Under the pieces are notes generated by a model, which ran no database searches, was not told where the DNA came from, and saw only the letters and a program-made list of their open reading frames with translations. Shown here piece after piece: positions 60,036 through 63,789 of a stretch of DNA of 64,000 nucleotides. The DNA comes from Eledone cirrhosa (taxonomy: Eukaryota). The translations under genes and the position numbers were made by a program. The DNA lies in NCBI GenBank assembly GCA_964016885.1, contig OZ024741.1, positions 201,748,001 to 201,812,000 of the forward strand, given 5' to 3'. The first letter of the stretch is position 1, and the number at the start of each line of letters is the position of its first letter.

Positions 60036-60098
60036 ATTATATTTTGTCTAATGAGGACGTACTGTTGTACATCCGAAATATGTATAATAAAATGTAAT
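60036..60098 (+). ncRNA. Minimal type I hammerhead ribozyme with a G5A core mutation
   Basis: 12-bp stem I; CTAATGA; stem II ggacgtac/gtacatcc; GAAA; ATATGTAT; AUA site. Confidence 0.65.
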
Positions 60099-60201
60099 TG
60101 ATCAAAAGAACATCTATTTTATTAATATTTATATATTAATATATATATATTAATATATATATATATATATATATATATATATATATATATATATATATAT
60201 A

Positions 60202-60542
60202 ACCAAAGCTTAGTATGGTTCGTTGATTACTCAATGAATACAATTTTAGATTAGAAGCACTCAACAGTTAAGTTTTTCTGGAGTTTTTAATATTATTCAA
60301 AATATTAACAAATGAAAAATATTCTCATAATAAAAATTATATATATTTCAAAGGTACTGTGTTGTTTTTTCAGTACGTCCTCATCAGATAAAATATATGA
60401 TTTGATATATGACATATATAATTTGATATTGTTAACATTTTGAATAATATTAAAAACTCCAGGAAAACCCCCTATTGAGTGCTTCTAATCTATTGTGAAA
60501 CTGTAGTCGTTGAGTAATCAACGAACCATATTAATCTTTGGT
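60202..60542. repeat. Foldback element with ~110-bp arms enclosing a minus-strand hammerhead core
   Basis: Arms 60202-60311 and 60428-60542; minus strand 60395->60335 reads CTGATGA-ggacgtactg..cagtac-GAAA-ATATATAT. Confidence 0.8.
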
Positions 60543-61173
60543 CTAGAAATATCGGGTGCCAGGAGATGAAGGGGGCCCACCAACATAGAGAATGCTATCA
60601 TTTAATTTTGATTTTGAAAGTAGGTTTATAATTATTAATTTTCCTTATACTTTTGTAGCTGTCTCGGTGGCCTACTTGGGGAATCATAGACGGGGGTGAT
60701 CCTGATCTGAAGTTTGATCGGGAGTAGGGTTCCCGGTAAACCTTTTCAGTCTTTTTTTTCTATGGGATGCAAAATAAAAACTGAACCCAAGACTAGGATC
60801 TCCACCGTTTCTAGTACTTACCACTAGGCTACTGAGACAACTACGAAAATCTATTGAAAATTCATACTTTCAAAATTTTCAAAACAAAATGATGTGATGT
60901 TAACTAAATGCTTTGCTTAATTGTTTTATTTATTTAAAAAAAAAATAAAACAATTAAGCAAAGCATTTATTTTATTCTTTCTCTTAGACTTCAGGTAATT
61001 TTTTAAAGCTAAGCATTGGCCCCTAAAATACTAGTGGGCTCTGCAATGCTACCATTGGGCAACCTGGCAACCTGGACAGTATATATATATATATATATAT
61101 ATATATATATATATATATATATATATATATATATATATATATATACATATATATGTATATATATATATATATA

Positions 61174-62276
61174 TCATTATCTATAAAAGGCAGATTGTTG
61201 TTGTTGTGTGTGTGTGTGTTCCATGTTTATAGATTTGCACAATTTCAAACCGATTTGACTCAAAGTCTGTAAGAATGTTGTAAATAGGTCAACGACTATT
61301 TATTTCATTCAAACTCACCCACAATTACGGAAATAATCGATAAAACTAAATACGTGACGCTTTGCCCCTCTAATACAATCTGATTTACTCTCTCTACTCC
61401 CCTTCAAATTCGATAAAACTACATACATGCTTACAAACTTCCTTTAGGAACGCCGAAGAGAGAGAGAAGGGAGTGAGAGAGAGAGAGAGAGAGAGAGAGA
61501 ACGTTTGTTTTTGAATGTGGAATGGTCAAACATTTTTTACTTCAATGACAAAGAGAACTTATTACATTTCATACGAAACAACAATTATTCAAAAGCAACA
61601 GATAAATGTATTCAACAACAACAAAAATAGCGATAAATCTTTTTTAAAACCACTCAACGAACGTGGAAGAAAGAAGTATCAGTTTATTTACTATACACAA
61701 TAATATTCTCTATGAGGTCACTAAACCTGCTAGAAACAGCAGCTAACTCTCCCTCATATCACACCCCTCCCTACTGTCTTAAATTTAGAAAACATATCCT
61801 CTATGAGGTCACTAAACCTGCTAGAAACAGCAGCTAAATCTCCCCCATATCACACCACTCCCTACTGTCTTAAATTTAGAAAACGCATATTCTCTATGAG
61901 GTCACTAAACCTGCTAGAAACAGCAGCTAACTCTCTCCCATATCACACCACTCCCTACTGTCTTAAATTTAGAAAACACACATTAGACAACCATGCAGAA
62001 CAACTCCATCGCAACTCTGTTGCTCGGCTGGCATCGTCTACGCGCGTGTTGCGCAAGTACTGTGAAACAATAAATTTCAACACTTCTTTGCACAGAGATA
62101 ATATCCATAGGCGAAACTACAATTGTCACTGCTGGCGCAGCTCCTGCTTCGGCAGTCCAGGTCTGCAATTCATTCACCCAGTGCCTGGCAGACAAAAAAG
62201 TGGTGCCATAAAATGGGTGGTGCAACCTAACTTTCGTAACTTACTGACCCCGAGCAACGCCGGGCTTTAATGCTAG
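61174..62276 (+). mobile_element. Non-autonomous Helitron (family B-type 3' end) with an internal 3 x ~93-bp tandem repeat
   Basis: 5' TC, 3' cccgagcaacgccggg hairpin, CTAG|T; repeat at 61703-61977. Confidence 0.75.
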
Positions 62277-62445
62277 TATATATATATATATATATATATA
62301 TATATATATATATATATATATATATATATATATATATATATATATTATATATATATATATATATATATATATATATATATATATATATATATATATATAT
62401 AGTAATAATAATAAATTTGAAGACTAAAATCCAAATAGGGCTCGA

Positions 62446-62502
62446 TAAGGTTTCAGAAGATCCCGTTAAGGGTGAAAGCAGCGATTTTTTGCTTAAACTT
62501 TA
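62446..62502 (+). ncRNA. Type I hammerhead-like fold, core variant CAGAAGA (second copy)
   Basis: Stem I taaggttt/aaacttta; stem II ccc/ggg; GAAA; stem III agca/tgct. Confidence 0.55.
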
Positions 62503-62619
62503 ATCTGTTATTTTAATATATATATATATATATATATATATATATATATATATATATATATATATATATATATATATATAATATATAAGAACAAAAGATG
62601 GTTAAAAGAGTTCCATATA

Positions 62620-62686
62620 TTTTATTATGCGCATTTCAAAAACAAATATCATCATGCAATAATATTTGTGTTTTCATCAGATAAAA
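62620..62686 (-). ncRNA. Minimal type I hammerhead ribozyme, intact core
   Basis: ttttat-CTGATGA-long stem II-GAAA, palindromic ATGCGCAT, A17, ataaaa. Confidence 0.8.
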
Positions 62687-62996
62687 AGGAAGACATGATA
62701 TGAAGGTTAAAAAACACTTGTGGATAGTGCAGTTTTAAATCAACATATCAGTTTTAAATCAACATATCTATTTATATATTATATTTTTTTTCTCTCTCTC
62801 TCCTTTTCTTTCTCTCCCCTCTCTCTCTCTGTTTTTTCTTTACCTCCGTTTCTTTTTTCTCTCCGTCTTTTTTCTAAATGTGCTTAACACTATAGCTAAA
62901 TAATTATAAACACATCAATATCCAGACAGCTTCCTAATATAACGGTCGCTTATAATATGGTACGTCAAAATTATTTATAAAACTGTTTATATATTG

Positions 62997-63062
62997 TATT
63001 TTATCTGACGAAGGCATGCCATATTTTTAATATGGTATCCCTGAAATATGTATAATGAAATA
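62997..63062 (+). ncRNA. Minimal type I hammerhead ribozyme, intact core
   Basis: tattttat-CTGACGA-stem II atgccatatt/aatatggtat-GAAA, ATATGTAT, A17, atgaaata. Confidence 0.8.
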
Positions 63063-63714
63063 AATATGGTTTTATAAATATAGTTTCCATTTGTTTAATA
63101 TCGTATATATATATATATTCCCCACCACCACCCCACTCTCCAGAGCTTGAAATTAATAAACATTGGTTGTACTGCCTCTCTGTTTTGTTCCTGTTCAAAT
63201 TTTTCCATTATATATATATATATATATATATATATATATATATAATATATATAATATATATATTAGTCAATGAGTAGTCTCCCTTAGAGTAAAAGGTCTT
63301 GGTAGTATCGTTAGAACGTCGGTCCCAAAATGTTTTCTAACCATTTAATTACGTACAATTCTATTCCGAGTTCATATCCCCCGCGAGATGAACTTTGCAT
63401 TTCCTCCTTCCTGGGATTCAATATAATTGCTGGTATGGTGCCTATATTATGTTACGTTCCACCACCCAATCGTTGTCTTGTTAATGTGACAACATACATC
63501 ACATACGATTCTATAATCCAATGGCCGATAACTGATCAATACTTTAGTGAATTGTTGCACTTGTTAACTTATTTATGTCTAGTGATAGATCACATTATGT
63601 GTATATTGGCTATAAAATTGCATGGAGACTATTATATATATAAGGCTTCAAGAACATCGTTTTTGTCTGTTCTCTCGTCTTGGATTGCCTCGAGAACGTA
63701 ACGTTATTAAGTAA

Positions 63715-63789
63715 GCTGTCTGATGAGATCATGGCACTGGTTATGCAGAATCGCGTAGTCACTGTCATCACTGAAATATGTATCACAGC
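63715..63789 (+). ncRNA. Minimal type I hammerhead ribozyme, intact core
   Basis: gctgt-CTGATGA-long stem II-GAAA, ATATGTAT, C17, acagc. Confidence 0.78.

Follow-up and report, generated by a model that had tools for sequence, protein, structure and literature searches.

Penelope-like elements (PLEs) of the Hydra clade combine a reverse transcriptase (RT) bearing the motif DKT with a C-terminal GIY-YIG endonuclease that has a CxCx5C linker and CxxC/CxH residues and no CCHH motif; they insert into (TA)n targets and show a 3′ hammerhead ribozyme, 5′ truncation, partial tandems, an inverted adjacent copy and a tail at one end (PMC8557442; comparisons with this paper and with PMC3088659, PMC4209133, PMC5625713, PMC6765202, PMC13282606 and bioRxiv 10.64898/2026.07.22.740005 refer to the portions of those texts that were available). 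The same features recur in a cluster of six hammerhead motifs, each representing a repeat family (families 1 to 6), in a 64,000-nt stretch of DNA from Eledone cirrhosa (assembly GCA_964016885.1, contig OZ024741.1, positions 201,748,001 to 201,812,000 of the forward strand; hereafter the window), and in related copies elsewhere in the genome. We read the cluster, with a probability of roughly 0.85, as a set of hammerhead-bearing, 5′-truncated 3′ ends, the copying of which began immediately 5′ of a bulged hairpin that is conserved. For PLEs, a tail confined to one end was already known, and the choice of template by the RT, the one-end tail and the inverted partner were named as open questions (PMC8557442). 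Hydra-1_Obim of Octopus bimaculoides is a published octopus family with (TA)n targets (PMC8557442, supplement), and its hammerhead differs from all six described here (PMC8557442, File S2). Compared with published Hydra elements, the present families have longer 3′ untranslated regions (UTRs; 0.5–1.7 kb), a tail of ~90 nt rather than 30–40 nt, thousands of young copies, one family without an open reading frame (ORF), and five with a long stem II containing a C mismatch, and their duplicated hairpin is not mentioned in the available text of that paper (PMC8557442).

In the Poseidon element PAc of Anolis, a member of another clade, two internal start sites likewise define the tail, the target is AT-rich and the hammerhead lies upstream of the starts; there, copying starts in an AC-rich stem-loop within the ORF, whereas the ends of the families described here are located in the UTR, immediately 5′ of a hairpin that is present in two copies (PMC11167929). 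For Poseidon both target strands are nicked and extended, a dimer is predicted, RNA 3′ of the start is needed and ribozyme cleavage is dispensable in vitro, while the binding motif was left open (PMC11167929). Type I hammerheads with a short palindromic stem III and a long helix II, and dual motifs on opposite strands 100–700 bp apart, are also features shared with the dimer-type PLE hammerheads (PMC4209133). In Octopus vulgaris, 30 recently active 'Penelope' families were described, the available text making no mention of Hydra or of a ribozyme, and the six families may already be within that repeat library (PMC13282606). Neither the hairpin nor the six families were found in the literature on Penelope-like elements, hammerheads and octopus transposons, repeat databases being outside the scope of that search.

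Hammerhead motifs of the cluster

A hammerhead descriptor comprising the core, three stems and the cleavage triplet matches the window five times, at 60048(+), 60387(−), 62680(−), 63005(+) and 63720(+), so that all matches lie between 60.0 and 63.8 kb and none in positions 1–60000. The features of the cluster are listed below (L numbers designate loci; short and long ends are those at hairpin 1 and hairpin 2, respectively).

60008–60142, +: family 1, short 3′ end assigned to a Hydra-clade PLE; 97% to L126; ORF upstream in L183–L186
60040–60094, +: family 1 hammerhead, core 60048 with G5A, predicted cleavage site 60086
60202–60416, −: family 2, long 3′ end assigned to a Hydra-clade PLE; hammerhead 60334–60395, 3′ strand of stem I lost
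60256–60284, −: family 2 bulged hairpin 1, the sole intact hairpin copy in the window
60417–60543, +: family 2 inverted second arm, tail only, without hammerhead; also reaches the long end
62402–62450, −: family 3 inverted tip of a long end; 92% to L340 in reverse
62450–62515, +: family 3 hammerhead, short end; core 62454; U4A, which is the norm in the family; stem II with U.U at its base
62585–62767, −: family 4, short 3′ end assigned to a Hydra-clade PLE; 96% to L309
62618–62688, −: family 4 intact hammerhead, predicted cleavage site 62626
62730–62767, −: family 4 19-nt repeat, marking the fold-back turn
62773–63111, +: family 5, short 3′ end assigned to a Hydra-clade PLE; intact hammerhead 62997–63062, predicted cleavage site 63054
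63119–63208, +: 3′ tip of a seventh hammerhead-bearing family, own hammerhead cut off; minimal hammerhead directly upstream at other loci
63642–63845, +: family 6, short 3′ end of an ORF-less unit of ~1.3–1.5 kb; hammerhead 63712–63792, predicted cleavage site 63784
59956–63244, no strand: (TA)n runs flanking the insertions (target sites)

Dinucleotide shuffles of positions 60001–63800 with TA runs removed gave no match in 500 trials, as compared to four in the real stretch, the fifth being cut by the end of the stretch. The covariance check proposed with the original prediction had a divided outcome: an Rfam search of 54000–64000 at E ≤ 10 found no hammerhead, whereas a model built from 26 family members, which included relatives of the five window motifs, recovered the same five at 48.7–72.7 bits, with the next best at 20.7. 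Stems that differ between copies and yet mostly still pair had been noted originally and were found again, as both sides have changed in 13 of 17 pairs across 26 distinct family members, with 95.7% of cells paired and none of 500 shuffles equalling this; the rows were pre-selected by a pairing descriptor, so the result leans towards structure. In the sixth motif (core 62454, +), the core carries U4A, stem III is long and stem II has U.U at its base; both the descriptor and the covariance model missed this motif, and its status as a hammerhead rests on family evidence.

Positions, strands, stem III 8-mers and the cleavage sites 63054, 63784 and 62626 were all reproduced as predicted. The six folds are likewise where they were placed, although only three, at 62680(−), 63005(+) and 63720(+), are intact, as 60048(+) has a core damaged by G5A, 60387(−) lacks the 3′ stem I strand that its family has, and the sixth has U4A. 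A type I core with three stems closing in stem I is present in the norms of families 1, 2, 4, 5 and 6 and in window copies 4, 5 and 6, while copies 1 and 2 are damaged, though their family norms are intact. For family 1, the idea that G5A reflects two RNA templates or editing was dropped, as the 20 of 20 copies with A were query-selected and 16 of 16 unselected copies have G5. Five families have a long stem II in which 3 bp are followed by an invariant C mismatch (CC 73, CU 26, CA 8, n = 114). That the motifs are chance folds of AT-rich sequence has a negligible probability: Rfam is silent in the window and free-energy z-scores are near zero for three motifs, yet neither the 500 shuffles nor the other 60 kb yield any, the stems covary and the motifs have a fixed location in PLE ends. 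As far as conservation goes, this explanation is refuted, and the motifs are, by their sequence, real type I hammerheads, that of family 3 putatively so.

Stem III is reduced to an 8-nt self-complementary sequence in five families, the 8-mers being those originally reported. Forcing the monomer into the hammerhead fold costs a computed 3–6 kcal/mol, and the computed self-duplex values are −2.2 for AUAUGUAU and −10.5 for AUGCGCAU. Such 8-nt stems have been linked to weak cleavage as dimers (PMC4209133; PMC6765202), and the present hammerheads would likewise cleave as dimers or with the help of protein. No RNA run was listed when a sequencing-run index was queried with families 4 and 5.

Families 1 to 5 and the Hydra clade

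All six stretches are dispersed repeats in the genome searched (3.0 Gb, 1,796 contigs), for which 30 loci per search were drawn from 40 scored candidates. The window has no Penelope ORF, as originally stated and as confirmed by tblastn with three PLE proteins; the proposed linkage to PLE RT/GIY-YIG ORFs was found upstream of the hammerhead in other copies of five families. In family 5, a frame with RT thumb and GIY-YIG ends 0.5–1.65 kb upstream of the hammerhead and is open for 750 codons in L259; the best 150 endonuclease matches are all at least 87% identical, and the 78,676 candidates of a first-look protein search do not represent a copy number. A 37-nt piece of family 4 has 7,976 exact matches in the genome (reversed control, 0), many of them forming divergent pairs 0.1–6 kb apart, and 13 of 15 fetched divergent-pair stretches match a Hydra protein, with an open frame of 821 codons in L325. 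The ORF end lies ~1.28 kb upstream of the hammerhead in most of the 30 family 2 loci, ORFs were found in four of seven extended family 1 loci, and a single family 3 locus (L340, L248) has an upstream pseudo-long terminal repeat (pLTR), ORF and 3′ hammerhead, the ORF following the upstream pLTR in L340 and preceding the 3′ hammerhead in L248. The ORFs of families 1, 2 and 3 are broken, in contrast to those of families 4 and 5.

The proteins carry RW[R/T], DKT (families 1, 4 and 5), G[LI]YRDD, CxCx5C, a single Cys between GIY and YIG, and CxxC..E..N..CxH. Third-place variants occupy the RWK position, namely RWR in families 3 and 5 and RWT in family 4, and our own reading of the DNA of the published Hydra-1_Crog also gives RWR (PMC8557442). 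An alignment of six endonuclease regions shows the CxCx5C linker and CxxC/CxH around the catalytic E and N, with CCHH absent; in the single family 3 copy, Y replaces the third Cys. Since the same motif set defines the Hydra clade (PMC8557442, section 11), families 1 to 5 are read as Hydra-clade PLEs, and the motifs are almost certainly the 3′ ends of Hydra-type elements. Naiad or Neptune identity was dropped on domain order, which was read from motifs and tblastn, and on motifs. Searches of Pfam, NCBIfam and PDB sequences with the ORFs gave no match, and among 418 protein clusters at E ≤ 1e−30 the ten looked up were without names.

The original prediction had favored short non-coding ribozyme elements, a view that fails for five of the six families, which are 5′-truncated 3′ ends of ORF-bearing PLEs. 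Its extension, six independent short non-coding retrozyme families, is very improbable and is refuted for these five, since other copies lead directly into Hydra ORFs and the 5′ ends vary; what speaks for it is the ORF-less window and family 6, which has no ORF in 60 loci and forms head-to-tail units. The caveat that novelty would fall if the motifs were simply solo pLTRs of annotated Penelope families applies to five families and not to family 6, which is ORF-less in the copies examined. We conclude that a known clade is extended here by new families, of which one is probably non-autonomous, and that known PLE biology accounts for the cluster.

Family 3 deviates in its core, with U4A in 18 of 20 copies met by chance, a variant that is not mentioned in the available text of PMC3088659. 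The canonical core exists (L248), and was seen outside fold-back junctions at 3 of 30 loci; the 759 canonical-core matches are not a count of intact cores, as most of the 30 viewed are fold-back junctions. By its closed stem III (4 bp, 9-nt loop) and U4A in most copies the family differs from dimer-type hammerheads (PMC4209133), while U.U at the base of stem II is common among published Hydra hammerheads (PMC8557442, table). The fold-backs (L229–L258) turn at a TTC-W-GAA quasi-palindrome in the hammerhead core, and such turning interconverts U4 and A4 between strands, which may be the origin of the U4A norm. A fixed 113-nt element was considered for family 3 and dropped, since the stretch is composed of an inverted tip and a short arm. 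That the family spread although most copies carry U4A is consistent with cleavage being dispensable or tolerant.

Further elements were met beside these families. A second kind of PLE ORF (L191:1-3234, L195), with 1,078 codons, DKS, a long Asn-rich insert plus GIY-YIG at the C-terminus, is young and adjoins family 5. The flanks (L027, L051, L121, L175, L187, L218, L290, L292, L387) contain no fewer than four additional hammerhead families of Hydra design, indicating that the genome holds more than the six. A metagenome scan gave two Hydra-type loci, one with a hammerhead, both ending before the hairpin position; contig JACCDP010458988.1 (L402:1370-1407) has a Hydra-type endonuclease and then a compact Hydra hammerhead, where the contig stops.

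The bulged hairpin, the copy ends and their possible origin

In all six families, a hairpin of the layout RCUC-stem-loop-2 nt-GAGY-RCU follows 30–65 nt after the predicted cleavage site, with an inner stem-loop of 8–37 nt and a total size of 20–45 nt; the 2-nt bulge is UA in 72 copies, UU in 66, UC in 32 and other in 4. Of 276 hammerheads with a tail that no TA run cuts short, 174 have it in the 130 nt that follow; for random pieces drawn from these loci the figure is 59 of 5000, and for window pieces it is 3 of 920. Pairs were counted by anchor in a script, because MAFFT misaligned three hairpins. When the outer bases alone were anchored, the three inner pairs were kept in 71, 61 and 61 of 72 distinct copies, in the forms C-G, U-G and U-A; A-U, G-C and G-U; and G-C, G-U, U-A and A-U, respectively; as the first outer pair, 62 copies have A-U and 6 have G-C. 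In the read-through junctions of families 2, 3, 4 and 5, a second copy (hairpin 2) lies 76–96 nt beyond hairpin 1, with the start codon 40–50 nt further on, and family 6 has it at the same place, the observed layout being ORF, 3′ UTR, hammerhead, hairpin 1, ~90 nt, hairpin 2 and the start codon of the next unit. An Rfam search of four junction loci placed no family over the hairpins and gave one sub-threshold HH9 match elsewhere in L309. Among published Hydra consensuses, the hairpin can be seen by eye in Hydra-2_Amil (3′ end), Hydra-1_Ajap (two before the start codon) and Hydra-2_Ajap (3′ end), and with changes in Hydra-1_Crog and Hydra-1_Obim, so that coral, sea cucumber and copepod are represented; it is not evident by eye in the Hydra-1_Amil consensus, which ends 43 nt after the hammerhead (PMC8557442).

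Most copy ends lie at the hairpins. When 279 ends of five families were mapped on natural read-through junctions, 147 fell at hairpin 1 and 100 at hairpin 2 (from 14 nt before to 2 nt into the hairpin), 14 read through and 18 lay elsewhere; the short ends of family 1 also lie just before hairpin 1. Opposite arms of one family at one locus (n = 61) combine a long with a short end in 55 cases, with 2 long+long, 1 short+short and 3 unclassified; for family 4, 29 of 31 classifiable pairs are long+short, against ~15 expected from arm frequencies by our own arithmetic. A family 4 pattern sample, chosen without regard to likeness to the window copies, agrees on the end pattern. Segmental duplicates (see below) were excluded from coverage counts and retained in the hairpin tally, the end listing, the pair counts and the end mapping.

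From this arrangement, the hairpin can be proposed, at about even odds, as the signal that sets the start sites of reverse transcription. A more specific and slightly more tentative proposal is that the duplicated hairpin, from coral to octopus, is the docking site of a telomerase-like RT, a dimer of which would prime one cDNA per target strand; the two-hairpin docking is suggested by the end positions, the long+short pairs and the Poseidon findings (PMC11167929). The element protein, probably a dimer, would bind the two hairpins and nick both strands of a TA run, one cDNA would be primed just 5′ of each hairpin on one target strand each, and the cDNAs would stop early and join head to head, giving inverted pairs. 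Each insertion would leave TA runs that attract the next. The insertion step probably does not depend on hammerhead cleavage, and family 6, with hammerhead and both hairpins and no ORF, would be moved in trans.

The ends could instead be set only by UA-rich RNA tracts pairing with nicked (TA)n, the hairpins serving translation control, packaging or stability and lying nearby by descent. We consider this unlikely, though it accounts for the fact that in every family the short ends fall within UA-rich tracts and that hairpin 2 precedes the start codon so closely in families 2–5. The long end of family 6, however, has no TA tract, other TATATA tracts in the tails (in the loop of family 3 hairpin 1 and just after the family 2 hammerhead) are almost unused, ORF-less family 6 keeps both hairpins, and in Poseidon the start sites are not homologous to the target (PMC11167929). 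Less probable still is that the motif acts as DNA, either as an internal pLTR promoter element or as an endonuclease recognition site; the outer 4+7 bases are conserved in sequence, and a tail requirement for endonuclease recognition of D. virilis Penelope DNA has been cited (PMC11167929), but the targets are bare (TA)n and the inner stem varies in sequence and length while its pairing and the 2-nt bulge persist, which is what a single strand would be expected to show.

Several points weigh against hairpin-directed copying and the wider explanation built on it. Three of the four outer pairs are fixed by the search anchor and hence uninformative, the hairpins fold weakly alone (z −0.4 to −1.7), and in a no-bulge control register position 2 also pairs (66 of 72), unlike position 1 (13 of 72) and position 3 (15 of 72). 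Only the 3′ half of hairpin 2 was seen in family 1. Most short ends lie in UA-rich tracts, so that microhomology could set them; about five of the 55 long+short pairs are segmental duplicates, most loci were selected for their resemblance to the window copies, and window copy 2, contrary to the long+short rule, ends long on both sides. Copying in Poseidon starts inside a stem-loop and not 5′ of one (PMC11167929), placement in the Hydra clade was judged by eye and from motifs, and an autonomous partner of family 6 was not found.

Family 6, the TA field and significance

Family 6 retains the hammerhead and both hairpins, and no PLE protein match was obtained inside its unit at 30 loci reached via the upstream region and 30 via the post-tail stretch. 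Its longest stop-free stretch is 154 codons (four units), and the first ATG after hairpin 2 meets a stop two codons later. Two same-strand hammerhead regions 1.29–1.51 kb apart were found in 10 of 30 loci chosen by the post-tail stretch, with arrays of at most about two units of ~1.4 kb in 3-kb loci. Copies are 76–92% alike, and by this measure of sequence the family appears older than families 4 and 5. Like non-LTR retrozymes, it has no ORF, a type I hammerhead in each head-to-tail unit and a PLE-derived origin (PMC6765202; bioRxiv 10.64898/2026.07.22.740005), while its unit of 1.3–1.5 kb and its mostly dispersed truncated or inverted copies with PLE-type ends set it apart. The tandem search of the latter study stopped at 1,000 nt, and its invertebrates were three insects and one coral, with no mollusc. 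Against this background, family 6 is likely a non-autonomous Hydra derivative rather than a retrozyme. Retrozyme units are usually a few hundred nucleotides long and stand in tandem arrays, a pattern that family 6 does not show. The retrozyme reading originally offered thus keeps some force for family 6, which is retrozyme-like and ORF-less in every copy examined, and none for the other five families.

The insertions lie at TA runs, as 8 of the 12 window runs of (TA)≥8 fall in 59956–63244 and most copies show the element end followed by TA. Two or three of the six families co-occur in 18 of 241 3-kb loci holding one (strict patterns), so families commonly mix at one locus, but six is a high number. 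The cluster consists of 5′-truncated insertions piled up at TA runs, as known PLE biology would have it, and the original view of several distinct PLE-related, ribozyme-bearing families inserted repeatedly at one microsatellite field is borne out by the family links and the TA runs. The 59–64 kb region recurs four times on the same contig, ~55–58 kb apart (near 201.81, 201.87, 201.93 and 201.98 Mb), and also on contig C889, and these segmental copies differ by later insertions and deletions. The window has lost ~480 nt of a family 1 fold-back, the inverted arm of which is kept in the paralogous copies L123/L130.

Other repeats share the neighborhood. Between TA runs lie a short AT-rich inverted repeat resembling a miniature inverted-repeat transposable element (60900–60975; one relative in L176) and a repeat with three 91–93-nt tandem units and a short hairpin plus CTAG at its end (61175–62276; one dispersed relative, L097), which we take to be akin to DINE-1/Helentron-type non-autonomous elements. 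A common repeat resembling short interspersed elements, with an (ATC)n start, follows immediately after the family 6 end (63846–64000). Minisatellites of 45–51-nt period at 42720–43175, 29585–29703 and 50579–50842 are unrelated to the hammerhead cluster.

The families are very abundant and consist mostly of inverted pairs of 95–99% identity; as near-perfect double-stranded RNA has been noted for octopus (PMC5625713), such pairs may, as a guess, supply much of it. The part most worth pursuing is the hairpin, as a candidate answer to how the RT finds its template, a question left open in previous work (PMC8557442; PMC11167929). As it is present twice, at fixed offsets from both ends, and young intact ORFs exist, the proposal is directly testable. 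If true, docking at the duplicated hairpin would explain the PLE tail, the long+short inverted insertions and the mobilization of ORF-less passengers such as family 6.

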